Shown here: in pieces, positions 1,334 through 40,924 of the stretch
Numbering within the stretch: position 1 is the stretch's first letter
Layout of the letters: each line of letters starts with the position of its first letter
IMG/VR virus record: IMGVR_UViG_3300013372_001213
Direction: 5' to 3' (one strand)
Length of the DNA: 64,000 bases
From: an uncultured virus (IMG/VR IMGVR_UViG_3300013372_001213)
Taxonomy: Duplodnaviria; Heunggongvirae; Uroviricota; Caudoviricetes
The notes under the pieces: model-generated
Databases searched by the model: none
Told to the model about the DNA's origin: nothing
The model's input: only the letters and a program-made list of their open reading frames with translations
Translations under genes and position numbers: made by a program

Positions 1334-1344
1334 TATATTTTATT

Positions 1345-3060: not shown

Positions 3061-3132
3061 ACACCAAATAAACTTTAAAAGTGTATTACTACCTCAAATA
3101 AATTTTGTATATTTAAAACATAATATTTTACT

Positions 3133-8900: not shown

Positions 8901-11134
8901 CATCAGGCCCTAAATTTGATATTGCTCTAGATCTATGGAATAAGTTTATTGGTGTTACAGTTAAGCCTAAGGTTGAAGCTCCTGTTACTGAAGAAAGTAA
9001 AAAAGAAGAAGTTGCTAAAGCTAAAGATCTAGAAAGAAAAAACATTGAAGAGACATTAGCTGATATATTAAATGAAGAAGGTCTTGCTATTCCTAAAGAA
9101 TTTATAGATTACTATTATGATTCTACATCTAGAGGAATAATTGCTCCTATTCCTAGTGTTTTTACAAATGCTAGTGGTGAGAAAGTAACATCTGGAGTTG
9201 ATTTTGATAAAGCTATTAATAAATGGAAAGATTTTATTTCTCAAGTAGATATTAAAACTTTATTAATGAAACCTAGAGAAAATCTTACTACTGCTGAAGA
9301 AAAAGCATTAAGGTTTGGGTTACCAGGAAGTTCTAATCTAGAAACTAGAAAACAATTTATTGAAAAAAGAATAGAGTTATTAGAAAAACAAGCTGATGCT
9401 TTAGGTTTAGATGCTAATGAGATTGCTGATACTATTGAGTACTTAAATGGTATATTAAATACAAGTGTAGAAAGTACTACTAATACTATAAATTCATTAC
9501 AAAAACAAATTGATACTTTATTAAATACTGTTAAATCTAAAGGTGCTAAAAAAACTGCTAGAGGTGTTAAAGCTTTAGAAAGAATAGCTGAACTTAAGGC
9601 TTCCTACAGATCAGAGTTTCAACTATTAAATGATATAGCAGATAGAGTAAAAGAACTTGAAGAAGAATTAAATGATATAGAAGCTGTTAAAAAAGATTTA
9701 GAAAAACAATCTACTTATTATGGTTCTTTACTTGCTGATTCTAGTTTAAGTACTTATACAAGAGATGAATTAACTGCAAGAAGAGATAAAATAAATGGCA
9801 AGATAAATACTATAAGTAGATTACTAGATACTATTAAACAAGCTATTTATGATTCTATCAAGTATATTAGAGAACATGTTAATGCATTACTTGAAAGTGA
9901 TAAAAAACTTAAAACTTTTATTTCTGAAAATGAATATGAAAACTTCCAATATCCTAATATAAAAAATAAGATAGAGAGTTTACAAAATGAAGCTTTAAAT
10001 AATGTAGAAGCTATAGAGTTCTTAGAAGAATCAAAAGCTTCAGAAGAAACTAGACAGGCTCAATTATTAGATGCTTTATTAAATTACCAGGATCAGGTAA
10101 GGTATTTAGAAGAGCTTATCTATGATTATAAAGAAGGAGGAATTAAGGATAAGTTTGACAACATGACTCTTAATGCTAAAGAGGTTGTGGCTGAAAAACA
10201 ATCTAAGTATCCGGTTACTATCTCTAGAAAAAATGCTAGAATTGATAAAAGAATCAAAGAAGCCAAAGCTCAAAATAAAGAACTAAAACAAGCTGAGTCT
10301 GTGGTAATTACACCTGAGGTTAGTATACCAACTCCTACAGATTTAGAAACATTAAAACAAACTCCTGAAGGTAAAAAGATAGAAGAAGAAAGGAAAAAAG
10401 CATTAGATAGAGAAACACCAGTAAAAAATGAAAATATAACAGTAGATTTTGGTGGGAGCGTATCTGTTAAGTATCAGGTTATTACTTATAAAGATGGTAG
10501 TGTAAAAATTTCCACAGTTAGTGAAAAAGCAAAAAGATATAATAAATTATCTGATGAAGCCTTTAAAGATTATGCAAAAATTGACTTTGAGTCAGATGCA
10601 AAAGGTATTATAAAAACTGAGTTAGTTAAAAATGATTATACTGATAAGCAATCACAAGAAATAAATGCTGCTAAAGAAAAGACAATCAATGCTAGATATG
10701 ATAAAGAACTAGAAGCATTAAAACTTAAAGCTACTAAAAATGTAATAAGTGAATTGTCATTTGAAAACATGTCTCCTCAAAAGTTAAATGAGGATATAAA
10801 TTTAAAAAGTTTAAAGCTAGCACAGTCACTTGGATATGAAGTTATTTATAATAATAATGAGTATAAAATTGCAAATATTGGGACAAATTCAGTAACTTTG
10901 AAAACAGCTCTTGGTACAAAAGTGGTTATAAATGAGGATAAAATAAAGGGTAGTTTACAAATTATAAAACCAGGAGTAAAAGAAGCAACACCAGAGGAAA
11001 ATGAAATTATTAAAACTAATGAAAAAAATGTTGCAGAAAATCCTAAAGACTTTCCTAAAGAAGAAAAAGAATCCAAAAAGTTAACTGTTCAAGAATATAA
11101 AACATTATTTAAAAAATCTGTTTGTAAAGGATAA
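5957..11134 (+). CDS. Large virion ejection protein (1725 aa) with Gly/Ala-rich hydrophobic segments and coiled coils
   Basis: Hydrophobic segments ELALMGATALTGGVLGA and FAGGVAMGLFAGPAMGAV, an internal ~60-aa duplication, and a single Cys near the C-terminus. Directly upstream of the RNAP gene. Confidence 0.65.
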   Translation: MAEESISQEAELDKGTPDFQQLNNQAINDINAIETSLNLPARPFAIDAYQNVAGNPLTGSNPGSRDPNNTFDFIKSLDSSVAADTTAESNILGAMRPFTYNGDYDGAKFDRYHSSGAVYDKLGFSPYRDNEALYNDKMTFGDQFVRAAKQWDDMVGVGFMSGIRSWKTMFTDPLAPDIEGARDMERIMTNAGSTTGGIGGFFTNTFLNSGYTVGIGLNFLGEELALMGATALTGGVLGAANVPTIVGRGLNAVNKLVEGGKAAFTGSKEMQGIRQMGNTIPEMKTWWNSVGQGARGFVKGTANILNPLDQTIDALRATDYATNYAKVAKTFGAFADDMLMMKGSVSEAKLEGGMVKINLTDDLINAYRAKEGKEPDAKAMTDIETQVDKEAYNVALWNLPAINTTNKLMYATVFSPLKNIMGKEGAIKAVDDYIFSNKTFSLLGDDLMSKGKAALKSFKNPKFYGQFGMNYLKANLAEGVQENLQDVISKAASEHAMALYTNPIRAAYEGYMPHVLKGFNDQFSAQGAETFAGGVAMGLFAGPAMGAVSVSMSKLIKAFGTKEYEALEKLQKEVKLKNVEHLNYLYQNDILLLAPDFENSVRTGNLANDLYSAAKNGNKKEALDALQGITDNYLLTGLQTGKIDIIIDKIKQYKNLSREELVEAFSKYGIKETDVDKALSKIDGIVDRAEQLKKDYAEVAEKYPSPFNPAKFLPGTSERRAAEVAQKAWKTATYNLVFARATYTAHSKRVAEVAQIFSGISNDLAKSDAQNLMTLLSPTSTAFEITTLKREIAVLDESNPEQKKVKVEKTKQLEKVSAFYEAVKAIKDAKNNDETLSAEANAKKAFGEYVKFLAKKNDNIVFNEDINKAYSVVKDYMSLKDDMKGLAESINVLMTPENFFQFHTRLNEAYKNIVNNKGEIIEANQNLIEKIKNIQAFTNLVTDESGLTVPNELVEAYLNALESGGEMPVPTAFKNLLGEDVTSGPKFDIALDLWNKFIGVTVKPKVEAPVTEESKKEEVAKAKDLERKNIEETLADILNEEGLAIPKEFIDYYYDSTSRGIIAPIPSVFTNASGEKVTSGVDFDKAINKWKDFISQVDIKTLLMKPRENLTTAEEKALRFGLPGSSNLETRKQFIEKRIELLEKQADALGLDANEIADTIEYLNGILNTSVESTTNTINSLQKQIDTLLNTVKSKGAKKTARGVKALERIAELKASYRSEFQLLNDIADRVKELEEELNDIEAVKKDLEKQSTYYGSLLADSSLSTYTRDELTARRDKINGKINTISRLLDTIKQAIYDSIKYIREHVNALLESDKKLKTFISENEYENFQYPNIKNKIESLQNEALNNVEAIEFLEESKASEETRQAQLLDALLNYQDQVRYLEELIYDYKEGGIKDKFDNMTLNAKEVVAEKQSKYPVTISRKNARIDKRIKEAKAQNKELKQAESVVITPEVSIPTPTDLETLKQTPEGKKIEEERKKALDRETPVKNENITVDFGGSVSVKYQVITYKDGSVKISTVSEKAKRYNKLSDEAFKDYAKIDFESDAKGIIKTELVKNDYTDKQSQEINAAKEKTINARYDKELEALKLKATKNVISELSFENMSPQKLNEDINLKSLKLAQSLGYEVIYNNNEYKIANIGTNSVTLKTALGTKVVINEDKIKGSLQIIKPGVKEATPEENEIIKTNEKNVAENPKDFPKEEKESKKLTVQEYKTLFKKSVCKG

Positions 11135-11139
11135 ATATT

Positions 11140-14100
11140 ATGGTATGTGATTTAAATCAAAACAATCTAAAAGAAAATCTTGAGAATTATGTAAATGCTC
11201 TAATAGAAGAGAATTTTAAAAATCCTACATTTTCATATACTGATATAGTTAATATTATTAAGCAAGATGCGTTTGATGAAAACAATGATCTTAGTCAAGC
11301 ATTAGGTATAGCATATCATGTACCTCAGATGATTTATGATATTATAAAGAATAACCCTGAGTACAATGAAAAAGAGTTTGTAAAAAAAGGATATGACTCA
11401 ACTAAGTTAATTAATGAGATTAATACTTTAGAAGAAGCTGAAGATAAAATCAAAGCAATTGCTACAATGCTTGGTATTACAACTACTAGTGTAGCTGAAA
11501 TGGAAGAGGTAATATCTCAACAACCAAGCTCAAGTAATACTGTGTATATTAAAGCTGAAGGTTCTGATAGTATATCTATAGATAATGCATTATCTAATGG
11601 TACTTATTTTGCAACAACTATTCAAACTGCTGAGACAGAAATGATAGAGGGTAAGCCAGTAATTAACTTAAATGTAAGAAAGAAAAGTGAATTATTTTAC
11701 CAAGATATGTTATCAAGGATCATACTTGCTAGAAAAGATGCTGACCAAGATTTTACAGAAATAGAGTATGATGGTCATAAAGGTTTCAGAGCAGTAATAA
11801 TGCTTGAAAATCAAATGCCAGGTACTATTAGAACAGGTAGAGAGTTTATGTTAACTAGAAATGTACCTGTATTAGTAATAACAGATAATCAAGGTAACAT
11901 TATGTACTTTGATGAAAAGACTGGTAAAATTTCTGATAAAGAAAATGGTAAACCTTTATATCAAACTTTAAAAAAAATAGGGGATGTTAATGCTACTAAT
12001 ATTACAAATAGTTTATCAAAGAATCTTAAAAACTTAAGTAAAGAAGAAGAAGATATTGCTAAAGCTAAAATTAGAAAACAAGTTGATGAAGAAGGTAAAA
12101 AACTTCAAGAGCTAAAAGATAAATCAAAACAAGGTCCTGTTTTAGTAGATATTATAGGAGGTTCAATTGGAGTAGCTCAAACAACAGATAATTTAGATCC
12201 TGATATAAAACATGCAGTAGAAGCTAACTTATCAGAGTTTGATGAAAATTCTTATGATCCTAATAGTATAATATTTGATCCCTTTACTATAAAAGGTGCT
12301 AGAGAATCACTACCTGCTATTAAGTTTAAAACAATTAAAAATCATGTAACATTAAAAAATACTGAAAAAATTGGAGAACAAGATCCTCAATTATTAAATG
12401 ATATAGTAAATATCCTTACTGAAGATGTAGGGTTAACTGATACAGAGAAATTCAATTACATAGGTCAATTTATAAATCTTAATAAAAAAGCTAATCCAAA
12501 TGATCCATCATCTATACCATATTCTATAGGTATTAATGCTAGTAAAGGTAATAAGCTTTATATGAATATTAATGGTAAAAATGTACCATTTGAAAACAAA
12601 GAGTTAGCTAAACAATTAATTTCAGATTTTCTTGGTAAAAATGTTCCTATTCATTTTAAAGATGAGCTTTATAGATTAAGGCAATATGATAAAATTACTC
12701 TTCAAGAAACACCTACTGGGTATTCTATTGCAAAAAGAGAACAGTTACCATATTTACCTTTTATATTTAGTAAGTTTACTCCTAGAGTTGCTTATGATAA
12801 AACATCTGGTTTTCCTGCAGTTAATAATGGTTATTTTATTTTTAGTCCTGTTATCACTCAAGAAGAGATTAATAAACAAATTGCTGAGACTACTGCTAAA
12901 TTAAAAGAAGAGAACATTCCTACTAACAATACAGAACAAGAGGAAGAGTTTGATGAACTTAAATCTTCTAGATTAATAGAAGATAATTCAACAGCTGAGC
13001 AAAATGCTAAAGCTGAAAACTGGTGGAGAAATGAATCAGCTTTGTCTAAAGCTGTTGATGAGAATGGTAGACCTCTTTTATCTCTAAACCTATTAAGAAA
13101 TGTTACAAACTCAGATGCATGGGCTACTTTCAGTGGTTCTGTAATTACTTTATATAAAGGAGCTAAGTTTAGTCAAATCTATCATGAGTCTTGGCATGCC
13201 TTTAGTCAGGTTTACTTAACTAGAGATCAAAGAACAGCTTTATATAAAGATGTAAGTAATCTTAAAGGTAGTTTTGAGGTTGTGAAAAGAATTGTAGGTC
13301 CAGGTTCTGTAACTTTTAAAAAGGTTAAAGTTAATTTTAAAGATCTTGATGTTAATAAAAGACCAGATAGAATATTATTAGAAGAGTTTATAGCAGAAGA
13401 GTTTAGAAAGTATGCTTTAAATGATGGTAAGTTTAATACTAAATCTGAAAAGAATACTGTATTAGGTAGAATTTTTGATAGAATATGGAGAGCTTTAAAA
13501 GCATTAGTAGGTAATACAGATATTTATACTACTCTTGGGTCTGATGTTGTTTTAAAGGATATCTTTAATACATTATACACTGCCAAAGACTCTAAAGATC
13601 TGTTACCCTACTCACCAAATTTAACTAATGCAGAGTTTGGGTTATTAAATAGTGGAGGTATTGTAAGTGAAGATGCTGAAAGTAATATATCTATATCTGA
13701 AGGTTTACTATTAAGTAGAACTATTGATGGTATATTATCTCAGTATGTAACTGAGAAGGTTCAAAAAGGTAGCTTTAGTGCTGCTACTAAAATCTTCTCA
13801 AGTAGAAAAAATCTTACAACCATATACAATGAGGTTAAAGATAAATTTAATAATGAGAGAAATGTATTACTAGCTAGAAAAAGCAAAATTCCAGCTACTG
13901 ATGTACAAGAATTAAGTATTATTGATAATAAAATTAACTTATTTACAAGAGCTTTAACCTTATTTGGTGATATTAATAAAGCTTTAGCAGGTGAGTCTGC
14001 AGAAGCTTCTGTAATAGCTTTCCATAGAAATAACAGTACATTTAAAGATCTATTTTCTCCATTTAGATTAATCAAAAATGAAGAAGGTGATAGTGATAAC

Positions 14101-17100
14101 TATGAAGAAACTAGTGATAGTTCTCAACAAGAACTAGCTACAAGTTATGATCAACCTACTAATGGAGTAGCTTCAGAAAAACTAGCTAATGACACTGTTT
14201 TATATTTAATAAAAAGCTTACTTAAACAAGATAAAGCAGGTAATTTTGAATTAAATGAACTAGGTTTTGCAGAACCTATTGAGTTTTTACCTTTCTGGAG
14301 AGTTTTAATGGATAAAGCATCTGGTGAAACTTCTATATTAGGTTTATATAATAAACTTGCAGAAGCTGGTAAAAATGTATCTCCTTTATTTAATCAGTTA
14401 CTTAGTAAGGTATATGTACAACAAACCAAACTTGAAGGTACTAAAGTTGTAAATCTTAGCCCAGAAGACTCCTTAGCTGTAATGATAAGAGAAGGTAGTG
14501 AGGTAGGTGATTTATGGATGAAGTTTGTTCAATCTACAAACTTGCATAAAGTTGATTTAATAGTAAACTATATACAAGCAAATACTAATGGTACTGTTGA
14601 TATAAGAGTTGGTAAAACAAGTGATAATTATCAAAAAATTATAAACACTGACTGGCCTGTAGCTTTCCAACAAAAAGAAAAAGATAGCTTTACTACTAGA
14701 TCTAACCAGGTTAATTATATAGACTTAGAGGCTGTTGCAAATAGATTCCTTATTAAAGGTACTAATACCCAAAATCAAAATACTTATATTGTAGCTAAAG
14801 AAAATTATATACCTTTTTTAAATAGTATAGGTTTATATGTAGATAATATATCTGAAATTAAAGAAATTTTAAAACCAGATGATATTAATTTTATAGCTGA
14901 TGCTATTGGTAAAACTAATGATAATGCTGTTGGAGAGGAAAGAAAAATAAGTAATGTTATATCTTACTTAAATGTAGCAAGAACTTTAGAAAATGGTACA
15001 AGAATAGCTCATAATGCTTATGCAATAATTAAATTAGCTGAATTACAAGCAGCTTTCTCTACTGAATATTCTACTTCTATGAAGTACACTCCAGAGAATA
15101 CTCTTAAGTCTACTCATGCTACTAATAGTACAGATACTCAAAAAATTAATGCTATTAAAAAATCTAAAGAAATAGGAAATTTATTTACTACAGATCCTGA
15201 GTTTATACACATGAATAGTTTTAATCCAGTAAGTAACCCTTTAACAAAAGGATTAATACTGTTTAAATCATTATACTCAACTGTTACTGGTGAAAAACTT
15301 CCAGATAATGATATTAATTATAGAGATCTTAGTGGAACTACTTTTGTTGATAGTGAATATGTAAGTAATGGAAAATCCTATGCAAAGATGGGCTTTTTAG
15401 ATAAGGTATTATCTACATTTATATCTACACTTGGAGGTGGTTACATAGAAGGAGTTCAAGCAGGTGATAAAAGTTCAAATTTTGCAGTAAAACTTAATTA
15501 TATTAATACATATAAAGGAAAAATAAATGATAATTTATATGTTGATACTGTTGCTTTTATAACAGATAAAGATGGTAAATCTATTATGGGAATTGATCCA
15601 ATGCAGAAAGTGTTGGAAATGTTATATCCTAAACTAGAAGGTGAGATTAGAAGAATTGCAATGGTTAATGCAGATCCTGCTTATTATGATAATATAAAAG
15701 GATTTGAAAATGGAGATGAGTTTGATATCTTTGATGAGATCTTAGATGAAGCAACAGGTTCTCTTAAAGAAACTTTAAAGTCTGAAGAAACTTATGAACA
15801 GTTACTTGAGAAAGGAACTTTATATGATTTACTAGTTGCTAATCCACTACTAAAAGAAAAAATAGATAAAGAAATCTTAACCTATTTTGATAAAATTGAA
15901 GAGTCTTATAATAAAGATTTATTTGATCCTATTTTTGGAAAAGATAAACCTATGCCTGCTGCATTAAAAGGTCTTATATTAAAAGATTTATCAGGTAATA
16001 AATTAGAACAAGATAATATTTATGGAAAAGATGAGGAAGAAAAGGACTTAAATATTAAAAAAGCAGCTATCAGATCTTATATGATAAATAACTTTATCCA
16101 TAAGACTGAAACCACTGTTTTCCTACAAGGAGATAGTTTCCAATTTGATCATACTGCAAAGGAGATGGTTAAAAGAACATCTGGTTCTCAATCTGGTGGT
16201 ACTATATTTCCTGTTGATAAATTAACTCAAATATTTATTGATACTAAAGTAGGAAGACCTTATGAGCAAAAACTTATAGCTGATAAAGTAATTTCTGAAA
16301 AAGATGTAAGAAGTTATGGTCCTACTCTTAACACAGCAATTATAGAAGAAAGTAAAGTAACTTCTGTTTATTTTGAATTATATCTAGAGTTATTTGAAAA
16401 TGACTTTAAGAAAAAAGGTTTAAAAGGTGATGAGTTAGCTGCTGCCTTATATGGTGTTAACCCTGATACTGGTTTACCAGGTAGTGATGAAACAGATTCA
16501 GAAGGTAATTATATTGATGTACACAAAGGTGGTAAAATGGACCCTTTTGTTAATATCAAAGATGGTGATGGTCAAGGTTGGATGAGCTTTGATACATATA
16601 GAATATTAAAAAAAGCTGAAGGAAACTGGAGTGATGCTCAGGAAGAATTATTTTTTAAGATTGTAAATAATGAGGAAATAGATACCTCTATACTTACTGA
16701 CATGTTTCCTGTATATAAACTCCAATATAATGGAGCCCTTGCTACTGAGGTAGGAAGATTTCCAGCACAGGCTTTTCATAAGTTCTCTTTATTTCCATTG
16801 ATACCAAATGTAATTAAAAACTTTCCTGCAGCTGATACATTACATAAAGCAATGATATCTCAAAATATAGATTATGCTTTATTCCCATCAGGTTCTAAAA
16901 GATCTTACATAAAATCTAGTCCTGAAAGTAAAGGTGATGCTATATATAATGGTACTACTAATAATATTAAACCATTATCAGAAATTAACTTTACAAAAAA
17001 TACTATTTATATAAGTTATTTAAAAAATCAAACTGCTGTTAACTCTTACTATAAAAGTGAGTCTACATTCTCTAGTCAGTTAAGAAAATTAATTACCTCA

Positions 17101-23100: not shown

Positions 23101-24702
23101 GCTGGTAACTTATATAATCTTGTTAATAGAGGTAAAGTTAGAATGGTTGGAGATAAGATTATAGGAAAAGGTATATCTTATACTCTTGATGAATTTGGAG
23201 CTGCTGAAGGTTTTAATGACTGGGCTGGATTTGTTAAAGCTGCTAAATATGCCGGTATAGATATACAAACAGGTAAAGAAGTATTCTTATATGATATTAC
23301 TCCTGCTGGTAAAGCTGCTGATAAAGTTAGACCTGTGTTTGATTCTCTACCTAGTAAATCATCTACCCCTACTATGACTTATGCCGGTATAGGATCTAGA
23401 GAAACTCCTCAAGAAGTTCTTGATAAAATGACTGAGGTAGCTAAGTATCTTGATGGTTTAGGTTATACCCTAAATACTGGTAAAACCTTTACTGCTAAAC
23501 CAAGTACTGACCCAAAATATCAAAAACAATATGAAGAAAGATTAGCTTTTTCTAAAAAAAATAATGGAAAAGTTGGGTTAGATGAAGAAGGAGCAGATAG
23601 AGCATTTTCTTTAGGAACTACTAAAAAGAACTTATTTGGTGTAAATGCACCTGTAGGTAAAAAAGAAATGAGTGTGATGGAAGAAATACATCCTTCTCCT
23701 GATAGATTAAAAGAAGGTGGTAAAAAACTTATGGCTAGAAATACTAACCAAATATTTGGTGAGAATTTAAATACTCCAGTAGACTTTGTATTATTTTATG
23801 CTAAAGAAACTAAAGGGATTAGACCAGAAGGTGGTACAGGACAAGCTGTTGAAATGGCTAGAAGAAAAGGTATACCTACTATTAACATGGCAGATACTAA
23901 TTGGAGAGATCAGTTAAAAGCAGCTATTGCTAATAAACCAAATAATAATGTTAATGATGATTATAATTTTGACTCATCAGGTATTTTAAAATATAATAAT
24001 AAAGAACTTAATGATTTATATTTAAAATTAAGAGATGAGTACAAAATACCAAGTATTCCTAAAACAAAAGAAGAAACAAGATTATTTAGATTAAAAAATG
24101 CATTATTACTTACAAAAAATGCTGATACAAATGATTATATAAAAATACCTGATTTATCAGATATATTTACTAATCCAGAAGCTCTTAACTTATATAAACA
24201 ATATTTAAACAACATTAATAATTCTAGAGATTTATTTATTGAAAGATTTAAAAATGATCCTTTATTTAATCAAGAAATAGAATTTAGACCAGGAGAAACT
24301 AAAAAAGGATATGAATTTATACCTAAAACAACAAAATCATTAATTGAACAACCATCTATTTTATTTATGGAATTGTTTAAAAAAGCTGGGTTAAAACCAG
24401 GTACAGATAAGCATAAAGCTAAGTTATTGGAGTTAAAGCAGTTTATAGACTCTAAAACTACATCTTTATTAAATAATGCTATTAAACTTGAGTTAAGGGT
24501 ATCTACTACCCAACCTACTGAAACTCTAGACTTTAAAACTATGCCTGACTTTACAATAGATAGAAAGAGAGAAATATTAAGTAATTTTGCTTTAAAACAT
24601 GGTATTACTAAAGATGAGGCTTACAAATATATTAATGAAGCTTTTAACAACCCTACCAAGAATAAAGAAGATATTATTAAAAAACTAAAAGAATGTTACT
24701 AA
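11140..24702 (+). CDS. Virion-packaged DNA-dependent RNA polymerase polyprotein (crAss-like, phi14:2 gp66-type) with zincin and accessory C-terminal domains
   Basis: R-I-P...GTDFDVDK catalytic loop (DFDVD at 18052-18066), DGDGQG at 16561, HESWH zincin motif at 13183-13197, and AlkB-like, ASCH-like and SLOG-like modules after about 21600. Confidence 0.9.
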   Translation: MVCDLNQNNLKENLENYVNALIEENFKNPTFSYTDIVNIIKQDAFDENNDLSQALGIAYHVPQMIYDIIKNNPEYNEKEFVKKGYDSTKLINEINTLEEAEDKIKAIATMLGITTTSVAEMEEVISQQPSSSNTVYIKAEGSDSISIDNALSNGTYFATTIQTAETEMIEGKPVINLNVRKKSELFYQDMLSRIILARKDADQDFTEIEYDGHKGFRAVIMLENQMPGTIRTGREFMLTRNVPVLVITDNQGNIMYFDEKTGKISDKENGKPLYQTLKKIGDVNATNITNSLSKNLKNLSKEEEDIAKAKIRKQVDEEGKKLQELKDKSKQGPVLVDIIGGSIGVAQTTDNLDPDIKHAVEANLSEFDENSYDPNSIIFDPFTIKGARESLPAIKFKTIKNHVTLKNTEKIGEQDPQLLNDIVNILTEDVGLTDTEKFNYIGQFINLNKKANPNDPSSIPYSIGINASKGNKLYMNINGKNVPFENKELAKQLISDFLGKNVPIHFKDELYRLRQYDKITLQETPTGYSIAKREQLPYLPFIFSKFTPRVAYDKTSGFPAVNNGYFIFSPVITQEEINKQIAETTAKLKEENIPTNNTEQEEEFDELKSSRLIEDNSTAEQNAKAENWWRNESALSKAVDENGRPLLSLNLLRNVTNSDAWATFSGSVITLYKGAKFSQIYHESWHAFSQVYLTRDQRTALYKDVSNLKGSFEVVKRIVGPGSVTFKKVKVNFKDLDVNKRPDRILLEEFIAEEFRKYALNDGKFNTKSEKNTVLGRIFDRIWRALKALVGNTDIYTTLGSDVVLKDIFNTLYTAKDSKDLLPYSPNLTNAEFGLLNSGGIVSEDAESNISISEGLLLSRTIDGILSQYVTEKVQKGSFSAATKIFSSRKNLTTIYNEVKDKFNNERNVLLARKSKIPATDVQELSIIDNKINLFTRALTLFGDINKALAGESAEASVIAFHRNNSTFKDLFSPFRLIKNEEGDSDNYEETSDSSQQELATSYDQPTNGVASEKLANDTVLYLIKSLLKQDKAGNFELNELGFAEPIEFLPFWRVLMDKASGETSILGLYNKLAEAGKNVSPLFNQLLSKVYVQQTKLEGTKVVNLSPEDSLAVMIREGSEVGDLWMKFVQSTNLHKVDLIVNYIQANTNGTVDIRVGKTSDNYQKIINTDWPVAFQQKEKDSFTTRSNQVNYIDLEAVANRFLIKGTNTQNQNTYIVAKENYIPFLNSIGLYVDNISEIKEILKPDDINFIADAIGKTNDNAVGEERKISNVISYLNVARTLENGTRIAHNAYAIIKLAELQAAFSTEYSTSMKYTPENTLKSTHATNSTDTQKINAIKKSKEIGNLFTTDPEFIHMNSFNPVSNPLTKGLILFKSLYSTVTGEKLPDNDINYRDLSGTTFVDSEYVSNGKSYAKMGFLDKVLSTFISTLGGGYIEGVQAGDKSSNFAVKLNYINTYKGKINDNLYVDTVAFITDKDGKSIMGIDPMQKVLEMLYPKLEGEIRRIAMVNADPAYYDNIKGFENGDEFDIFDEILDEATGSLKETLKSEETYEQLLEKGTLYDLLVANPLLKEKIDKEILTYFDKIEESYNKDLFDPIFGKDKPMPAALKGLILKDLSGNKLEQDNIYGKDEEEKDLNIKKAAIRSYMINNFIHKTETTVFLQGDSFQFDHTAKEMVKRTSGSQSGGTIFPVDKLTQIFIDTKVGRPYEQKLIADKVISEKDVRSYGPTLNTAIIEESKVTSVYFELYLELFENDFKKKGLKGDELAAALYGVNPDTGLPGSDETDSEGNYIDVHKGGKMDPFVNIKDGDGQGWMSFDTYRILKKAEGNWSDAQEELFFKIVNNEEIDTSILTDMFPVYKLQYNGALATEVGRFPAQAFHKFSLFPLIPNVIKNFPAADTLHKAMISQNIDYALFPSGSKRSYIKSSPESKGDAIYNGTTNNIKPLSEINFTKNTIYISYLKNQTAVNSYYKSESTFSSQLRKLITSFLYENGVPVDYFQANGFKTPEEAIEAWEEEPYKRMASQFHDYAEELKDSIEDFVEYKKKELLDELGWTEDDLYAETVDDEKLESLLGFLDKEFARQGFSEHERSPLIATSNFNKVDISTSPLAARFEKMIMAIVNNRIIKPKLKGEPLVELSSAFMQDANFRKPTLEEIAKYDDFGGTNGLASYVVDPSGKYKTRGFMFKRALNKMDEGLFQLDYFTKNADGKYVNAGESIAIYKPRKKGEQREIDLERSLDRLNEMLQVKDWRMNDDNYKKLRLTGVRIPVQGHNSMEFGEVAQFLNPSAGPVIIIPAEIVAKSGTDFDVDKMTTYMPFLTRSGKLMEKMNEEDIDEKEEELKTKFDKLVLNKKVIEVLKQDKSEKWLDINFKLNNFRKAIRLAGKKIDEKTLETLSSNKSKVIIKAMDEPGMEEYVKNFIPKAYNIYIKNIKGVTLENLETVENALEIIYNEKSELSEVFTERADLNDHKNNMLGGIQNKLIQDMVNILELPHLAASLMSPNDTNLAKPAADKLEGYIQKADNESDYTVSVKTGKKMYKRGISPTKVYTQNYNIKRHQENFSSKDSLGIAAIDNYINNLLNMAGGIMEKSMNVSAKTPIKTKEGFKWPKDNNTTVEVNIDLNLPHNKLNGAISLSHVMDKLKTNSIADIINQLMNGFVDVGKDAWVAYLQGNVDVVPKFLFLLQTGVPFKHIAYLVSNPMTRQYIKDKANGKAVLSPLMPNIAKSYDVAGNMLNKIEFSDNVLYNLDNIYGIQEALKEKAKSSDFTEETLERVAQKSLDYTDREQIAGFLEYLYVENLIEDYDAMKKAMNPDTKNSPDLYSAQAKIEEVQGLMNSPSIVQKVINKLATNSMISPFFIQEFARRLFSRLFKLRDDSQVNNFLISIFKDRMNASKAKKITGYDTETYIAKFKNFIAQYIFANELRVYKSGDTVYKGMPITPEVLEQLNQDFDKGLYLRSNANSDSYESRKLAPISAQAFPGIVKKDSNNNPIVVPNEKLRTDFIEFGLERDYLRQTMSLESVKNTKEFETRRKRLMASGYSEYRQNDGESAEKYMTRLNNSTYEDMLANKALTNTYNIWQLFRSGDNTIAQELTDIITNYPEMGKSTKYSMLLQFMPLGIPNDVLYKNISNFMLKNYSNLDEGLISEYNNQWNDLANPNKDKVIANKEANIYISNFFQNLPLYAFLQSGMDSGKFSLASVMPYNEYKKVMDKASEKFIAKLETTDSDKILQGLKQLFEIENSGKNKKLRGRGPLLKVDISNLPDAEYSIYEQPFIERVMNDNNIPIGVFNITNNYTKDGRAYPVTRDQVDKLIKNNPSVIFLLSPADLIKLTNVLTTDEINKAKININDVINKIISTGTDVVVYSEGFGDSAKKFFDNNGIAEAPKKQVTTEYPIEPGRFVTNSGVTYITIKKNDNGTWQVYNPNATGANSKKSFAESNLTTSFIKAVKVRYRDADYLVTPKDTIISLTTGTKMDWKDNDGNRIAILKLKDTKPVTNETVSVPVTQSSTGIKVISPDYGVVQASTNPTKEFDQKLADTIFKDVRDNAYVENGSNTAQRMWGNGLMWKGNNTKKPTGIPLKVIPAKVDNNANGKLTTVNTPYFYDPLYNDGTPVAPITDLDFLKKHIENTLGIDMSDYDVSLNNIYEEGHNLYRHTDIDESNTAKGYPVIVYVFGNDHKVRFDDNGGKRAFGQMVNPKTLTLKNGDIYAFGMGGKGRFETVHDVVASPKTNNNFPELIGADGKPTKKYTVTLTFRRAADLTPGMPTTPSKTGVKAPVSTDKKLTQEEADWLKDNLKLITKTYNSSTLYGAIDIELKDPIIIGETKVTHIAPDVSGNPSIIFERPSGKWMVTIEEKKGNLFTRLYKWADYSKKGEFSFYASKDSEINDKANIEKAGLNTLVEKLYADTNIPDPGTRLGQFEAANFLQQKYGLKRTYKDIVNQLMSKTQPQAPVTNEVKGSIQLQLIEDLVQQGKAKTTVRRYDKESGIYKSEAGNLYNLVNRGKVRMVGDKIIGKGISYTLDEFGAAEGFNDWAGFVKAAKYAGIDIQTGKEVFLYDITPAGKAADKVRPVFDSLPSKSSTPTMTYAGIGSRETPQEVLDKMTEVAKYLDGLGYTLNTGKTFTAKPSTDPKYQKQYEERLAFSKKNNGKVGLDEEGADRAFSLGTTKKNLFGVNAPVGKKEMSVMEEIHPSPDRLKEGGKKLMARNTNQIFGENLNTPVDFVLFYAKETKGIRPEGGTGQAVEMARRKGIPTINMADTNWRDQLKAAIANKPNNNVNDDYNFDSSGILKYNNKELNDLYLKLRDEYKIPSIPKTKEETRLFRLKNALLLTKNADTNDYIKIPDLSDIFTNPEALNLYKQYLNNINNSRDLFIERFKNDPLFNQEIEFRPGETKKGYEFIPKTTKSLIEQPSILFMELFKKAGLKPGTDKHKAKLLELKQFIDSKTTSLLNNAIKLELRVSTTQPTETLDFKTMPDFTIDRKREILSNFALKHGITKDEAYKYINEAFNNPTKNKEDIIKKLKECY

Positions 24703-24703
24703 T

Positions 24704-27046
24704 ATGAGCTGTGTAAATCCTAATGATAGCCTTTTTAAAACTTTACTTAAAAGTATTAAAAATCCTCTATTAGCTGAAATAGAATTTGATAAACAATCTA
24801 AGGCTGAATCTGAAGGTAAAGCTGAAGCTTTTTATGATAAAAAACTTATAAAAAATGCAGGTAATGATATATCTAAAATCTTTGAAAACTATCTTGCTCA
24901 ATTTGGGATTAGTGTAAAAGATATCAATGAAGCAAAAGATAAATTAAATATAGATGAAATTGGTTATGCAGACATCTTATCTAAAATTGCTTTTATTAAA
25001 AATAGAGAAGATTTACCAGAAATTGCTGGAGAATTTATTGCTTATATGATGAAATATAATGATCTTATAAAAGACATTATATTAGATTTTGCAAAAAATG
25101 ATGCTAAACTAAAAATAAAAAAGAATGCTATATACTATGTAGCATCAGGATTAGGTAAAAGTGTTTTAACTAAAAATAATCCTAACAAGTTTGCTGACAT
25201 GGATGACTTATTATTTCAAGCTGTTAAAAATGTAACAGGTCAAGAAATGAGTACTAAAAATGCATCAATGGAGCTTAATAAAAATATAGAGGTTGGTAAA
25301 GAATTAGTAAAATTAATTGAAGAAGTAAGTAGTACTAAGATTATATTAAGTCCTTTAAGTGAAGCTAAGATTAAAAATTTAGGTTTAACTTATAAAAAAT
25401 TTTTTATTCCTAATGTATCAAATGTACCTAATATAGTAAAAGGTATAGCAGATAGATCTACTAATCCTTATGATATTACTGAAGACTTATACAAAGAAAT
25501 TTATATAAATAAAGTATCTAAAAATAAAAATGTATTTGAAATTAATGGTTATATAGAAGATGAATTTAACAATCTAAATAGTGAATCAGAAAATATAGAA
25601 GATTTCTTAAAACCTAATGAATATGTTAGTAGAGATAATTATGGGGATCTAGTAAAAGAACAAGATTATTTTAAAAGAATAGGTATATTAATATCTAATG
25701 AATTAAAAGGTAGATATGATATATCAAATGATAAATCTTTAATAAGTAAAATTAAAAAGATCATTAGTAAGTTCTTTGGGTTATTTAAAAAAGCTAATGT
25801 AAGTAAGATAAATAGAAATATTAGTGAGATTGTAGATAATGTAATAAAACAAAATAAAAATCTTATTACATCAAGTTTATATAAACCTGGGGCAGAAGGT
25901 AAAAAAACCAAACCTGTATCTATTGAAATAGCCTTATCTAAAGATGCTTTTGGTAAATCTATTATATATAAACTTTCTGAAAAAGGTTTTATTCTTACTG
26001 GTTCCACAGCATTATCAGAACAAGGTACTGTATTAAGACCTGATGATAATCCTTTACATGATATTGATTGGGTTAGTCCTTTTAGTAGAGAGGAAACCAA
26101 AGCAAGATTTATGGAAGTATACCCTGAATCTATTTATGTTAGAGAAATAAAAAATCCAAACTATGTTACTGATACTTATTTAATAGCCCCAGAAGGCTAT
26201 GAGATAGTAAATTACAATGCAAAAAAATATAGTAATAAAACTATTATAAATTCTTATGATGTTGCAAGTAAAAAAACTGGTAAAATTGTAGGTAATTACA
26301 CGATATATTATGATGAAGCTAAAGATAAAAATGTAGAAAGAGAAACTGGTGTAAGAGGTAAAATTATTGACTTTTTTAGTTATGATAATTATACCCTTTT
26401 AAATAGAAATTTACCTTTTGAATTTACTACTTCTGATAATGTACCTCTTAAATTAGCTAATTGGAAAGATATTTTTGCTGCTAAATTAACTTTTGCTAGA
26501 GATAAAGATATCTGGGATTATAACACATTTATGCCAGATGAAAATATTTATGAACTAGATAAAGAGTTAAGTTCTTATATTGCAGGTCAAGTTGTTAAAA
26601 ACTTTGGTATAACAATCCCTACCAAAAATAAAGATACTTTAATTACACAATCTGATATTGAGAAATTTAATAATAATGTAATGGTTAATAATAAGGTATT
26701 ACCTTCAACTTATTATACTGGTCAAAATAATGCTCATAAATGGATTCTTAATGAAAAAAATCTATATGATTTAGTAGATAAAGATACTGATGAAATTTAT
26801 TTAACAGATGTTAATCTTAGTAAAGGTATTCAGGAGAATATAGAGACTCCTTCTACTCCAATTAATAATAATGAAAGAGATAATGCAATAGACTCTATAA
26901 ATGATAGTGTAAGAAGATATAGATTAGATGAAATCTTAGCAGAAAAAGGTTATGATGTAGATGATATTATTAGTAATTTAGAGGCTGCATCAACTCAAGA
27001 AGAATTAAATAATATTATTAACAAATTATTAAATCAAATATGTTAG
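24704..27046 (+). CDS. Virion cargo protein: degenerate zincin-like region, P-loop kinase and Pol-beta-superfamily nucleotidyltransferase (780 aa)
   Basis: ASGLGKS...DMD (25142-25204), GSTAL...HDID (26000-26068) and AKL...RDKDIWD (about 26480-26515). Confidence 0.65.
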   Translation: MSCVNPNDSLFKTLLKSIKNPLLAEIEFDKQSKAESEGKAEAFYDKKLIKNAGNDISKIFENYLAQFGISVKDINEAKDKLNIDEIGYADILSKIAFIKNREDLPEIAGEFIAYMMKYNDLIKDIILDFAKNDAKLKIKKNAIYYVASGLGKSVLTKNNPNKFADMDDLLFQAVKNVTGQEMSTKNASMELNKNIEVGKELVKLIEEVSSTKIILSPLSEAKIKNLGLTYKKFFIPNVSNVPNIVKGIADRSTNPYDITEDLYKEIYINKVSKNKNVFEINGYIEDEFNNLNSESENIEDFLKPNEYVSRDNYGDLVKEQDYFKRIGILISNELKGRYDISNDKSLISKIKKIISKFFGLFKKANVSKINRNISEIVDNVIKQNKNLITSSLYKPGAEGKKTKPVSIEIALSKDAFGKSIIYKLSEKGFILTGSTALSEQGTVLRPDDNPLHDIDWVSPFSREETKARFMEVYPESIYVREIKNPNYVTDTYLIAPEGYEIVNYNAKKYSNKTIINSYDVASKKTGKIVGNYTIYYDEAKDKNVERETGVRGKIIDFFSYDNYTLLNRNLPFEFTTSDNVPLKLANWKDIFAAKLTFARDKDIWDYNTFMPDENIYELDKELSSYIAGQVVKNFGITIPTKNKDTLITQSDIEKFNNNVMVNNKVLPSTYYTGQNNAHKWILNEKNLYDLVDKDTDEIYLTDVNLSKGIQENIETPSTPINNNERDNAIDSINDSVRRYRLDEILAEKGYDVDDIISNLEAASTQEELNNIINKLLNQIC

Positions 27047-30000
27047 GTTGTCCAATTGAATCAGGAGAAGAGTGGAAAAAAATACTAGCTTCTACTAATG
27101 GTAATAGAAGAAAAGCTCTTGAAAAATGGAGGGCTAATGATAAACTTGCTAATGATGAAGATCTTAATTCAAAAGTAGATGATGAAGACTTTATTAATGA
27201 TAAAGGTTTAGACCCTGTTCCTGCTCCAGAAGAAAAAGATAAGTTCTCTAAATTAGTTGAAGATATAAAACTATATCTTAGTAAACAGTATGCTATTCTC
27301 CAAAAACAAAAAATTGCTAGACAAACAGAAAAATTACAAAGATTAGATGAAGTAATTAAAGCTTTTTCAGCTCTTGAAGGGGTAGAATCTATTATAATGT
27401 TTGTTAAAGATGCTTATGAAAAATCTCAAAAAGTACAAGAAAGGGTTAATAAAATCTTAGCAGAAAAGGATTCCATGTCCAGGAGAGATTTGATTAGAAG
27501 TTTATCTGCTGTTAATGATTTTGCCAATGGTTATTCTATATTAGATGAGATAGAAAAAGAAGAAATTTGGGAATATTTTAGTGAGCCTGTAGATCCTTCT
27601 ATACCTGATGAAGAACTTACTCCTCAGCAAATGTTAGGCAAAGCTATTCAAACTAAAAGACTAGTTCAAAATAAATTTATAAATGAAGGTATACCTCTAA
27701 TGGCAGAATTTTTATTAGAGTATAAATCAGAAAATAGTGAAGAAGCTATTCTTGAACAAATTAATAAAGAAAAAGGTATAATAGAAACTATTAAAAAAGA
27801 TCCTTCCCTAACTGATGAACAAAAAGCTGTTAAAATAGCTAAATCAGAAAAAGAAATTGCTAAATATCAAAGTTACTCTTTAGATAAGGAAGGTTTAATA
27901 GAGATTTTAAAATCAGCTAGTTCTGATACTAGTGTTTTAGATTATTTAATCAGTCCTTTAATTAGCTCTGAAGATGCTGCTATAGCATTATTTGCTAAAG
28001 CTATTAAGAGTAACCTTGAGACTGCAAGATTAAAAGATATAAAATTAAAAAATGAACTAGTATCTAAACTTGAAACATATGCTAACACTGTTAGTGCTAG
28101 TATGGATAATAAAGCTGCTTTTAATGAAGGTTTATATGAAGAGTTAAACTATGATTATATAGATTATAAAACTGGTGAAACAAGAACTGCAAATTACATG
28201 GCTTTTGTACAAAAGTATGATATGTCTAGATATGAAAGAGAAAAGTTTAAGTTTTTTGAAAAACTAGGTTCTGAGCCTATTCCTGCAGACCCTTTAAATA
28301 TTACTAGAGCAGAGCAAAATAAAATAGATACTTACCGTAGAAAAATAGGAAACTGGTATTCACAAAATAAAAAACCTAAATCTGCTGAAGAAATAAATAA
28401 AATCATATCAGCTAAAAAGAAAGATTTATATAACAAAGTTATAACTCAAAAAGAATATGATGATTGGTATGAAGATAGAGTTTATAAAAATGAAGAATAT
28501 GGTACTACAACCTATAGAAAAGAATTAAGTGAACCTGCTGAAAAATACCTTAATCCTAAATGGACAGCAATGTATGATTCTAAAGGTAACCCTAAAAATG
28601 TAAAAGGTGAATACCATAAATACTTATTAGAAACATATTTAGCTTCTCAAGATCTTATTCCTGATTCACAAAAACCAGGATTTAGATTACCTTCTATTCC
28701 TAAAAGTGATTTAGAAAGAGCAATGACTGATGGTGTAATAAGTACTATATCTGAAAATATAAAAGATGCTACACAAGTAAGAGCTTTTGATACTCAATTT
28801 GGTATAGCTGATACAGCTCAATTAGGTGTTAAGTTTATACCTGTTAACTTTATACAACACATGTCTCCAAAAGATGTTAGTTTAGATTTAGGTAAATCTG
28901 TATTATTATTTGCTTCTATGGCTAATAAATATAATGCATTAAATGAATTAAATGCTGAGATATCTTTATTTAAAACTATTATAAGTAATCCTAAAAGAGT
29001 ACTTGAAACTAATAGTAAAGGTGAAAATATATTAGATGTATTTGCTAGTAAATTAGGATATGAAGAGTTTATTAAGCAAAATGGAGAGTCTTATTCTAAA
29101 AAACATTTAGAAGCTTTTCTTGAGATGGTAGTATATGGAGAGATGCAAAAAACTGAAGAGTTATTTGGCTTATCTACCTCTAAGATTACTAATACATTAA
29201 GTGCATTTTCTGCTTTAACTTCTATTGCTATGGACCCTCTTAAAGGTATAGCTAATAACTTACAAGGTAATATACAATTAATTATAGAAGCTAATTCAGA
29301 CCAGTTTTTTTCTAAATCAGATTTAGCTACAGGTAAAGGTTTTTATCTTAAATCAATGCCTTTAATGCTTAGTGATTTTGGTAAAAGAACTCCTGAAAGT
29401 TTAGTAGGCCAAATGATAGAGTTTTATGATGCTTTACAAGGGGAGTTTAGAGATCAGTATGGTAGAAAAGTAACATCAAGTGCTGCTATTAAATTACTTA
29501 GTAGTGATACATTATTCTTTAACATGCATTTTGGAGAACATGAGATTCAAGTTTCTACTATGTTAGCATTAATGAATGCTACTAATGTAATTGATAAAAA
29601 AACTGGAAAAACAATAACTCTTTTACAGGCTCATACTCAATATGGTGCCTATGGGGTTGAGGAAAACACAGATTTTAGTGAAAAAAAGAGACAAGATTTT
29701 CAAAATAGGTTGCATGCTTTAAATAAAAGAATGCATGGTGTTTATAATGAATTTGATAAAGGTACTTCACAAAGATATTCTATGGGAAGATTAGTTGTAA
29801 TGTATAGAAAACATTTGGTACCAGGATATAAGAGAAGATTTAAAAGTATGTCTATGGATCAAGAACTTGGTACATTTACAGAAGGTTTTTATATTTCTTT
29901 TTGGAGATTATTTGCTAAAGATCTAGTAACTTTTAAATGGAATATGATTCAAGATTGGTCTACTTATACTGCTTTTGAAAAAGCTCAAATGAAAAGAGCT

Positions 30001-30408
30001 ATTGCAGAAGCTACAATGATATTAACAACAACAGCTTTAGCAGGTATCTTAATCTCTATGGGAGATGATGATGATGAATTAAAAGATAATTATGCTTATA
30101 ACTTTGCTTTATATGAAATGATAAGGATGAGAAGTGAAACTAGGGCTTATATTAATCCAAAAGATGCATATAAAGTTGTAAAATCTCCTAGTGCCATGAC
30201 AAGTACATTAGAAAGAGCTATTAAATTTACTGATCAGTTTTTCTTTACTTGGGATCCTGAAAAATTAACCTATCAAAGAAAATCAGGTGTATGGGAAAAG
30301 GGTGATAATAAATCATGGGCTGCTTTCTTAAAACTTATAGGGTATAGTGGTTATAATCTTGAACCAGGAGAAGCTGCTGAATCATTCTTAGGAACTATAA
30401 ATAAATAA
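27040..30408 (+). CDS. Large virion ejection protein (1122 aa), last gene of the cargo operon
   Basis: Long helical ORF with a C-terminal hydrophobic segment (MILTTTALAGILISMG); overlaps the upstream gene by 7 nt. Confidence 0.65.
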   Translation: MLGCPIESGEEWKKILASTNGNRRKALEKWRANDKLANDEDLNSKVDDEDFINDKGLDPVPAPEEKDKFSKLVEDIKLYLSKQYAILQKQKIARQTEKLQRLDEVIKAFSALEGVESIIMFVKDAYEKSQKVQERVNKILAEKDSMSRRDLIRSLSAVNDFANGYSILDEIEKEEIWEYFSEPVDPSIPDEELTPQQMLGKAIQTKRLVQNKFINEGIPLMAEFLLEYKSENSEEAILEQINKEKGIIETIKKDPSLTDEQKAVKIAKSEKEIAKYQSYSLDKEGLIEILKSASSDTSVLDYLISPLISSEDAAIALFAKAIKSNLETARLKDIKLKNELVSKLETYANTVSASMDNKAAFNEGLYEELNYDYIDYKTGETRTANYMAFVQKYDMSRYEREKFKFFEKLGSEPIPADPLNITRAEQNKIDTYRRKIGNWYSQNKKPKSAEEINKIISAKKKDLYNKVITQKEYDDWYEDRVYKNEEYGTTTYRKELSEPAEKYLNPKWTAMYDSKGNPKNVKGEYHKYLLETYLASQDLIPDSQKPGFRLPSIPKSDLERAMTDGVISTISENIKDATQVRAFDTQFGIADTAQLGVKFIPVNFIQHMSPKDVSLDLGKSVLLFASMANKYNALNELNAEISLFKTIISNPKRVLETNSKGENILDVFASKLGYEEFIKQNGESYSKKHLEAFLEMVVYGEMQKTEELFGLSTSKITNTLSAFSALTSIAMDPLKGIANNLQGNIQLIIEANSDQFFSKSDLATGKGFYLKSMPLMLSDFGKRTPESLVGQMIEFYDALQGEFRDQYGRKVTSSAAIKLLSSDTLFFNMHFGEHEIQVSTMLALMNATNVIDKKTGKTITLLQAHTQYGAYGVEENTDFSEKKRQDFQNRLHALNKRMHGVYNEFDKGTSQRYSMGRLVVMYRKHLVPGYKRRFKSMSMDQELGTFTEGFYISFWRLFAKDLVTFKWNMIQDWSTYTAFEKAQMKRAIAEATMILTTTALAGILISMGDDDDELKDNYAYNFALYEMIRMRSETRAYINPKDAYKVVKSPSAMTSTLERAIKFTDQFFFTWDPEKLTYQRKSGVWEKGDNKSWAAFLKLIGYSGYNLEPGEAAESFLGTINK

Positions 30409-40504: not shown

Positions 40505-40924
40505 TTATTTTATTTTATAAAATCTACCTAGGATATTACCATTTAAATAAAGATTATCTTCTAACACACCTGATAAAAACTGATGTCTTACCTCTTGGTA
40601 AGTTAGTTCAGTTTTACTAAAGCATATTTTTAGAATAATTCTTTGAATGACAACACCATCTTTATGTGCTTGCTTAAGTACATCATTACTACTATAGTAG
40701 TTTTGATAGGCAGACTTTGTTACTACTTTGTATTTTTTAAGTCTCTTATCTGTAGAGATAGCCTTTTTGGCCAATTTTTTCTTAGTATTAGAAAAGAAGT
40801 TCTTCTTTCCTATATAAGCAACAGCTTTACCATTTATAATAGCTGACATTTGATATACAAATCCTACAGCACCATCTGGAATATCTTTGTCTTCAAAGAT
40901 TTTTCCTTTATATATCCAACTCAT
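40505..40924 (-). CDS. GIY-YIG-like nuclease
   Basis: GFVY...YIGKK...YYSS...E...YLNGNILGRF. Confidence 0.65.
   Translation of the reverse strand: MSWIYKGKIFEDKDIPDGAVGFVYQMSAIINGKAVAYIGKKNFFSNTKKKLAKKAISTDKRLKKYKVVTKSAYQNYYSSNDVLKQAHKDGVVIQRIILKICFSKTELTYQEVRHQFLSGVLEDNLYLNGNILGRFYKIK

Follow-up and report, generated by a model that had tools for sequence, protein, structure and literature searches.

Paired cysteines at the junctions of giant cargo proteins in a crAss-like phage suggest a head-to-tail link

No phages are more abundant in the human gut than crassviruses, and it is still an open question how nearly a megadalton of protein passes through their narrow tail before the DNA. A 64,000-nucleotide stretch of DNA from an uncultured virus of the Caudoviricetes (IMG/VR record IMGVR_UViG_3300013372_001213; the whole stretch is referred to as the window) raises a related question. 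Four consecutive genes on its plus strand encode proteins of 1725, 4520, 780 and 1122 residues (to be referred to as the chain), and these proteins contain cysteine only where the end of one faces the start of the next. Why are cysteines kept at these positions? We describe here the chain and its relatives, and consider whether the paired cysteines may link the proteins head to tail.

Four chain proteins and their cysteines

The chain is encoded as follows:
5957..11134, plus strand: chain protein 1, 1725 residues; its only cysteine is Cys1723 (codon 11123-11125), two residues before the end, and there is no N-terminal cysteine.
11140..24702, plus strand: chain protein 2, 4520 residues; its only cysteines are Cys3 (codon 11146-11148) and Cys4519 (codon 24694-24696).
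24704..27046, plus strand: chain protein 3, 780 residues, a plug-in link; its only cysteines are Cys3 (codon 24710-24712) and Cys780 (codon 27041-27043).
27040..30408, plus strand: chain protein 4, 1122 residues, the last link; its only cysteine is Cys4 (codon 27049-27051), and there is no C-terminal cysteine.

The genes are separated by 5 nucleotides (nt) and then 1 nt, and the last two overlap by 7 nt. The six cysteines among the 8147 residues of the chain (0.07%) are all located within four residues of the three junctions, and none is internal. An earlier note on this DNA had claimed exactly these six positions, their pairing across the junctions, the open reading frames (ORFs) with their gaps and overlap, and the codon coordinates, all of which are correct. 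As background, the 35 minus-strand ORFs scored in the window, which are replication genes, contain 102 cysteines in 7834 residues (1.30%). At this rate about 106 cysteines would be expected in the four chain proteins. Six cysteines placed at random would all come to lie within four residues of the six junction-facing termini with a probability of about 6.5e-16. Terminal cysteines are not a habit of this genome, because only one of the 35 minus-strand ORFs has a cysteine in its first eight residues, and only one in its last eight. Judged from the sequences, the terminal-cysteine pattern is a real, selected feature, far beyond chance.

The termini share other features in part. A motif C-x6-7-(F/W)K-x-(L/I)L had been proposed for two of the N-termini. 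It reads C-x7-F-K-T-L-L in the 780-residue protein and C-x7-W-K-K-I-L in the 1122-residue protein, and is present in 13 of 37 and 108 of 120 members of their respective families (about 2.5 and 8 in shuffled sequences). The motif therefore holds for these two proteins and their families, and does not extend across all the junctions. The C-terminal helix proposed for the 780-residue protein is found in its AlphaFold model, which ends in a helix (residues 765-779).

The identities of the proteins are clearest for the last link. The 1122-residue protein has tblastn matches in 94 phage records, mostly RNA-polymerase subunit genes of Crassvirales. With blastp, it matches crAss001 gp49 (expectation (E) value 2.5e-49), phi14:2 g065 (E 6e-36) and a 2007-residue protein of cr1_1 (E 6e-59). 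By sequence similarity it is a homologue of crAss001 gp49 and phi14:2 g065, an RNA polymerase-associated virion protein, and it is encoded after the polymerase gene, as in the cargo block of Crassvirales.

The 4520-residue protein contains the catalytic motif of virion RNA polymerases, DFDVD, at residue 2305 (nt 18052-18066). The region around this motif matches residues 1314-1404 of phi14:2 g066 (E 3.5e-8) and residues 1413-1494 of crAss001 gp50 (E 4.5e-7). These similarities are short, about 90-100 residues, and they span the DFDxD motifs of g066 and gp50 themselves. The identity to the cargo proteins of crAss001 and phi14:2 is about 23-34%, over parts of the proteins only. The polymerase-bearing giant also has an oxygenase-like and a DprA-like part. 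Residues 3591-3722 resemble 2OG-Fe(II) oxygenases (Pfam PF13532, E 1e-4, below the cutoff), and residues 4078-4268 form a DprA-like module (PHROG 768, E 6e-43). Because of these two stretches, the giant would be a multi-enzyme injected protein.

The 780-residue protein has no Pfam or PHROG match. Its AlphaFold model contains a confident domain at residues ~400-600, and this core (residues ~400-610) is similar to nucleotidyltransferases of the Pol-beta type, with the invariant motif Gly433-Ser434 ... His452-Asp453-x-Asp455. The best matches in the PDB are weak, and include MenT1 (8an5_B, E 8.6e-4), JHP933 (4ok0) and TglT/MenT3. An insert at residues ~141-300, present only in the window and the L001 lineage, is weakly similar to P-loop kinases (adenylate kinases, E ~1e-3). 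From its predicted structure, this link looks like an injected enzyme. Some of its homologues carry the further Pfam domains PF18760 and PF07737.

The 1725-residue protein shows weak similarity only to the 1552-residue first chain protein of Leptolyngbya phage Lbo-JY46 (E 5e-10). Among 50,697 phage records, there is no nucleotide match for positions 5957-30408 and no tblastn match for the 780-residue protein. The four genes are best explained as the block of a distant crAss-like phage that encodes its injected cargo. Packaging of the proteins in the virion is suggested by homology, gene position and the depletion of cysteine. We call the phage crAss-like only, and not a member of Crassvirales; its capsid, portal and terminase genes are located outside the window.

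Junction cysteines in related phages

The pattern was compared across 28 chains, namely those of the window, 20 IMG/VR loci, crAss001, phi14:2, cr128_1, cr85_1, cr1_1, Lbo-JY46 and A-4L. A scan of IMG/VR with the 780-residue protein by itself found no relatives, and a later scan seeded with an alignment of proteins of the 780-residue family gave 25 loci, from which the 20 were drawn. Excluded from the count are L003 and L023 (near-copies of L002 and L022), L004 and L008 (no junction within the locus), L025 (a weak relative, 35% identity) and cr4_1 (another genetic code). The Intestiviridae (p-crAssphage) are outside the chains compared. The tallies count related phages, not independent events.

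All 38 junctions in the 28 chains carry both cysteines, and none of the 25 complete last proteins has a C-terminal one. The chains contain 124 cysteines in 146,798 residues, and 79 of these are terminal. Throughout the 25 IMG/VR loci, giant ORFs that follow one another almost always show a C-terminal cysteine and then an N-terminal one; between the paired ORFs lie 562 nt in L013 and 444 nt in L018. The same pattern is observed in cr4_1, with Cys4488 of 4491 residues followed by Cys3.

The first proteins require more care. An N-terminal cysteine is absent from nine complete chain-first proteins of the 28-chain set and from two upstream proteins (2629 residues in G001 and 1823 residues in G004). 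It is present in 3 of the 12 complete first-listed proteins (L013, L016 and L018). These three are taken as probably not first in their chains; for L018, an upstream partner that ends in cysteine is seen.

The families of the individual proteins follow the same rule. In the last-protein family (120 homologues among the matches listed, 43-95% identity), 119 members have a cysteine at position 3-6, none has a C-terminal one, and 109 have no other cysteine. The first-protein family was collected with the last 999 residues of the 1725-residue protein as the query, and consists of 50%-identity representatives of at least 1200 residues. A C-terminal cysteine is present in 89 of these 90 proteins, an N-terminal one in none, and 88 have no other cysteine; the exception is a longer form of 4000 residues. 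The 780-residue family (37 matches, 45-73% identity) was scored over the first eight and last nine residues. Cysteines are found at both ends in 25 members, at the C-terminal end only in six, at the N-terminal end only in three, and at neither in three, and 34 members have no internal cysteine. An alignment of 18 sequences of this family shows no variation at Cys3 and Cys780. The ends expected for a linear chain, a first protein without N-terminal and a last protein without C-terminal cysteine, hold in every family surveyed. The earlier note had named lack of conservation in homologues as one result that would speak against it, and the 38 junctions together with the first- and last-protein families contradict this.

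The cultured phages allow the residues to be named. In crAss001, they are Cys2339 of the 2341 residues in gp47, Cys5 and Cys2404 of the 2412 residues in gp50, and Cys5 in gp49. In phi14:2, they are Cys1797 of the 1797 residues in g067, Cys3 and Cys2179 of the 2180 residues in g066, and Cys3 in g065. According to the accessible text of the crAss001 structural atlas, gp47, gp49 and gp50 were detected by mass spectrometry in virions (PMC10172136), and the accessible part of the phi14:2 preprint gives the same result for g067, g066 and g065 (bioRxiv 10.1101/2020.03.07.982082). The gp47-gp50-gp49 and g067-g066-g065 blocks are similar to the chain of the window in the terminal-cysteine pattern and in having homologues of the 1122-residue protein and of the 4520-residue protein (DFDxD region). 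However, they consist of three proteins, while the window has four, with the additional 780-residue link and a much larger polymerase protein.

A scan seeded with the Steigviridae subset of the gp49 family returned crAss001-like phages only. In the resulting 80 loci, the gp49-like proteins have the N-terminal cysteine only (71/71), the gp47-like proteins have the C-terminal cysteine (69/69), and the uninterrupted gp50-like proteins have both (69/69), together with one to three internal cysteines. The pattern is also found in Lbo-JY46 (PP438436; L032 6897-19803), a cultured cyanophage outside the named Crassvirales with a gp49-like region (E 3e-43 to the 1122-residue protein). The sole cysteine of its 1552-residue protein is the last residue, and that of its 2748-residue protein is at position 4. 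This phage could be another test system.

The cysteines follow the ends of the proteins rather than their domains. In the window, L001 and L017, the conserved core of the 780-residue protein is found in a separate protein with a cysteine at each end. In L002, L009, L014, L015 and L019 it is fused to the upstream giant, at its end, and in L004, L005, L010, L022 and others to the downstream protein, at its start; neither kind of fusion has a cysteine at the fusion point. The description of this protein as a plug-in link is therefore supported, as the stand-alone cores are tipped with cysteine at both ends and the fused cores lack the junction cysteines. Likewise, all 16 longer homologues of the 1122-residue protein have no cysteine within 60 residues of the projected junction. 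Of these homologues, five giants of 4272-4911 residues (P0158, P0160, P0166, P0167 and P0168), with ordinary N-termini, have no cysteine at all. Fully fused crAss-type polyproteins are noted in the available portion of the phi14:2 preprint (bioRxiv 10.1101/2020.03.07.982082); they have the same domain order as the chain and an 1122-like end, and differ from it in being one polypeptide. In a chain made as a single polypeptide the cysteines are absent, and these fused forms are a natural control, from which the cysteine pairs are seen to stand in for peptide bonds. Mapping of the cysteines in orthologous operons, suggested in the earlier note, thus finds them where the polypeptide is split and not where it is continuous, as that note had predicted.

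The cysteines do not follow the DNA. In crAss001, cr128_1 and cr85_1, the genes of the first protein and its partner lie on opposite strands, and the first protein still ends in its sole cysteine, which excludes translational coupling or a DNA motif at the junction. Both cysteine codons are used across the chains (TGT 63, TGC 13). From these comparisons, selection is seen to act on the protein rather than on the DNA.

Several gp50 homologues (including L035, L043, L072, L073, L094, L096, L103 and L107) are split into two ORFs with no cysteine at the break. These split genes were considered as counter-examples and set aside, as each break holds an inserted element of ~0.9-1.3 kilobases with a small cysteine-containing ORF (181-residue or 254-residue type). 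Within the L035 insertion (6195-7115), positions 6842-7058 match the group I intron model of Rfam with 42.9 bits and E 2.7e-9, less than the gathering score. If the insertions are spliced out, the gene is broken but the protein is whole, which fits the rule. The first insertion type is found in L035, L043, L072, L073, L094, L100 and L107, and the second in L096, L100 and L103. The second type has no Rfam match, and it is only presumed to be a spliced element.

A disulfide-linked chain and its alternatives

We consider that the paired cysteines clasp neighboring proteins into a covalent thread, and give this explanation as a whole a probability of about 0.6. The chain proteins are purged of cysteine, as is often the case for ejected proteins of phages. 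Each junction keeps two cysteines, one in protein n, 0-3 residues before its C-terminus, and one in protein n+1, at position 3-4. The C-terminal tail of protein n would dock on the N-terminal head of protein n+1, and the two thiols would form an inter-protein disulfide once the virion leaves the reducing cytoplasm. The product would be an unbranched covalent pseudo-polyprotein, 1725-4520-780-1122, equivalent to the single giant polypeptides of some relatives. Since every joint connects a C-terminus to an N-terminus, this string could pass the portal and the tail channel in the N-to-C direction, with each protein drawing in the one behind it, and the thiol reductants of the host cytoplasm would then free the separate proteins. 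We infer both this ejection-train function, which is plausible, and the release of the proteins by reduction. Distinct types of tail and head at each junction would fix the order of the proteins. The KLKECY tail is paired with the M[SA]C[VI]NPN...NPLLAEIEF head in 5/5 phages of different architectures, and kinship could also explain this co-occurrence. Co-folding of the last 150 residues of the 4520-residue protein with the first 300 residues of the 780-residue protein, with small alignments, gave a median of 0.32 compared to 0.15 for the control, a difference below the margin needed to count for binding or against it.

The sole solved example of such a design is the cyanopodophage A4 (Anabaena phage A-4L, Saffermanviridae). 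As reported in the accessible text of its cryo-electron microscopy study, the C-terminal helix of gp27 enters gp26, where a disulfide between Cys1715 and Cys5 holds it, and its authors propose that ejection may proceed as a chain reaction (PMC12002296, PNAS 2025). In the A-4L record, gp27 (1717 residues) and gp26 (1114 residues) have a single cysteine each, which is two residues before the end in gp27 and at position 5 in gp26. A4 is therefore similar to the window in having single cysteines at the facing termini of consecutive giant ejection proteins that are otherwise free of cysteine, and all three junctions of the window fit this arrangement. There are also clear differences. A4 has one junction and no RNA polymerase, compared to a chain of three junctions in the window, and its bond has been physically observed, while that of the window is predicted from sequence. 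The window proteins have no homology to A4 gp26 or gp27 by BLAST (E >0.2), nor does the gp49-family profile to gp26 by hhalign (probability 0.7%). The likeness is thus one of working, and common descent is not claimed.

Disulfide chemistry of the link is probable, by analogy with these systems. Each end offers a single thiol, with no conserved metal ligand beside the cysteine, and structural disulfides are present in crAss001 virions, according to the part of the atlas available (PMC10172136), as well as in A4. For the direction of threading, the accessible atlas text describes N-to-C as proposed for gp45, and states that the cargo must partly unfold (PMC10172136).

Several observations weigh against a disulfide-linked chain. 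The bond has not been seen by experiment in any crAss-like phage, and is deduced here from sequence. In the gut, crassviruses live in the absence of oxygen, and the thiols would not necessarily oxidise spontaneously in vivo. The virions are assembled in the reducing cytoplasm, and a disulfide alone cannot account for co-packaging. The A4 precedent is an analogy, as gp26 and gp27 have no detectable homology to the window proteins. The topology is derived from counts, which would be no different for self-cyclised middle proteins with a first-to-last pair. Kinship inflates the tallies, many rows being related phages. The cysteines are also not always restricted to the ends: the gp50 homologues hold one to three internal ones, and the weak relative L025 has three internal ones and no terminal one. 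In the 780-residue family, 12 of 37 homologues lack one or both terminal cysteines, although most of these look fragmentary or differently built. The giants of L020 (40-18148) are rich in cysteine (23 and 8), and this chain is not cysteine-free, yet they end in ...ENCL and then start with MSSKC, so the internal purge is not universal while the junction pair persists. Finally, in their accessible text the crAss001 atlas (PMC10172136) and the phi14:2 preprint (bioRxiv 10.1101/2020.03.07.982082) are silent on a bond in these proteins. The preprint text does not contain 'cysteine', 'Cys' or 'disulfide'. The atlas text does not contain 'cysteine' and uses 'disulfide' only for the tail and portal vertex, and its readable supplement does not contain gp47, gp50, disulfide, cysteine or reduced.

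The same head-to-tail pairing might use another link, a shared metal ion with further ligands or some other thiol adduct. This is unlikely, even though the pairing rule is silent on chemistry and gut phages assemble and persist in the absence of oxygen. Several cargo copies per crAss001 virion, as suggested in the accessible atlas text (PMC10172136), could also unite four thiols. However, there is only one cysteine per terminus, no His, Cys, Asp or Glu is conserved beside it, and the flanks vary freely; A4 and the crAss001 virions both form disulfides.

It is still less probable that the cysteines do not pair with those of the neighbor. The middle proteins could be closed on themselves, with the first and last proteins paired, or the cysteines could anchor the proteins to the portal or the capsid interior. 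The cysteine counts alone fit the cyclised topology. However, 13 of the 28 chains, including those of Lbo-JY46 and A-4L, have two proteins, which can pair only directly. Each fission adds exactly one tail cysteine and one head cysteine at the new break, for which a link between neighbors is the simplest account, and specific tail and head types co-occur. Independent anchors would place cysteines on the ends of the chain as well, which are observed in 0/120 last C-termini (among the matches listed) and 0/90 first N-termini.

The absence of any link is very improbable, and is already contradicted by the comparative data. Cysteine could have been purged and tolerated at floppy termini, and suppression without a link is known. 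The Schitoviridae ejection proteins (N4 gp50 and DEV gp71, gp72 and gp73) are cysteine-suppressed, for which transit across an oxidising periplasm is the proposed reason in the accessible text (PMC11445570), and T7 gp15 and gp16 have no cysteine. The N4 and DEV proteins are similar to those of the window in being giant, ejected and nearly free of cysteine, and they include a virion RNA polymerase. On the other hand, they keep no terminal pairs, and the N4-type polymerase is one continuous chain. The window does not belong to this class of complete absence, as it keeps six conserved terminal cysteines. T7 gp14 (gene 14, L119 3729-4319) has only Cys2. The crAss-like design adds a positive rule for the termini to the purge. 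Tolerance would predict sporadic cysteines at all termini, rather than near-invariance at the junctions and absence at the chain ends. Cysteines are also rare at the ends of other window genes (1 of 35 at either end). The cysteines could alternatively be a by-product of a nucleotide signal at the junction, as three of the window genes abut or overlap, but translational coupling was rejected on the opposite-strand partners, and the use of TGT and TGC and the varying distance from the cysteine to the stop or start codon argue against any such signal. Split inteins or trans-splicing were also rejected, as the cysteines are so close to the termini (0-3 residues before the end, or position 3-4) that intein fragments would not fit, and no Pfam intein family is present; a lipoprotein reading of the terminal cysteines was considered and rejected.

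If the disulfide-linked chain is correct, a more general scheme can be put forward tentatively, with rather less confidence. Cognate cysteine-tipped modules would fix the order of the cargo, and any protein with both connectors could be inserted and delivered, as would be the case for the 780-residue link. The thread would be pulled through the tail N-to-C, and reduction would free the cargo and time transcription by the virion RNA polymerase. Such a modular, redox-cleavable coupling would have arisen independently in A4.

A covalent head-to-tail link is a cheap and concrete hypothesis, in which disulfide joints replacing peptide bonds would give order and continuity, and it is testable at the residues named above in two cultured phages, crAss001 and phi14:2. 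It would explain how the polymerase block can consist of one to four genes without loss of function. The cysteine signature alone would predict which unknown proteins are injected cargo, and the link suggests a natural route for loading extra proteins into a phage for delivery.

The earlier note was not aware of any description of such a chain. This needs qualification for the single terminal disulfide, which is published for A4, and stands for the multi-joint crAss-like chain. The accessible text of the A4 paper neither presents the bond as a general, conserved feature nor ties it to gene fission and fusion (PMC12002296). A search of the full-text literature, with subscription-only papers and one atlas supplement outside its reach, found no conserved multi-joint chain, no inclusion of the RNA polymerase and no gain or loss with fission and fusion. 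The single A4 bond and cysteine suppression were known beforehand, and the conserved multi-joint chain following gene fission and fusion in crAss-like phages appears to be new. In a 2026 paper on N4, the crassvirus ejection proteins are still to be resolved.

Neighboring genes in the window

Further genes with recognizable features are:
98..5955, plus strand: three cysteine-poor proteins upstream of the chain, of 411 and 571 residues (no cysteine in either) and 940 residues (only Cys128 and Cys134).
3133-5955, plus strand: the 940-residue protein of this group; its only two cysteines are six residues apart.
48817-49107, minus strand: ClpS-like protein of 96 residues (adaptor of the N-end-rule Clp protease), PF02617, E 1.8e-14.
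38153-39397, 40505-40924, 52438-52914 and 57136-57780, minus strand: genes of homing-endonuclease type (HNH and GIY-YIG SegE-like), scattered in the replication module.

From their position and composition, the three upstream proteins are probably additional cargo or ejection proteins that do not belong to the chain, in the place of crAss001 gp45 and gp46. They have no Pfam or PHROG match, and no BLAST similarity to crAss001 gp45 or gp46. On the minus strand, no thioredoxin-like or sulfhydryl oxidase family was found among the 30 ORFs scanned (of ~60 with at least 60 residues).

A close pair of cysteines is also found in upstream cysteine-poor proteins of other phages. It is present in L117 (925 residues, Cys128/Cys134), G001 (1143 residues, Cys595/Cys605), crAss001 gp45 (Cys390/Cys398), phi14:2 g069 (Cys369/Cys378) and A4 gp28 (Cys1036/Cys1039), and is absent upstream in cr128_1 and cr85_1. 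This pair may form a hairpin, or staple together the subunits of channel-forming cargo.

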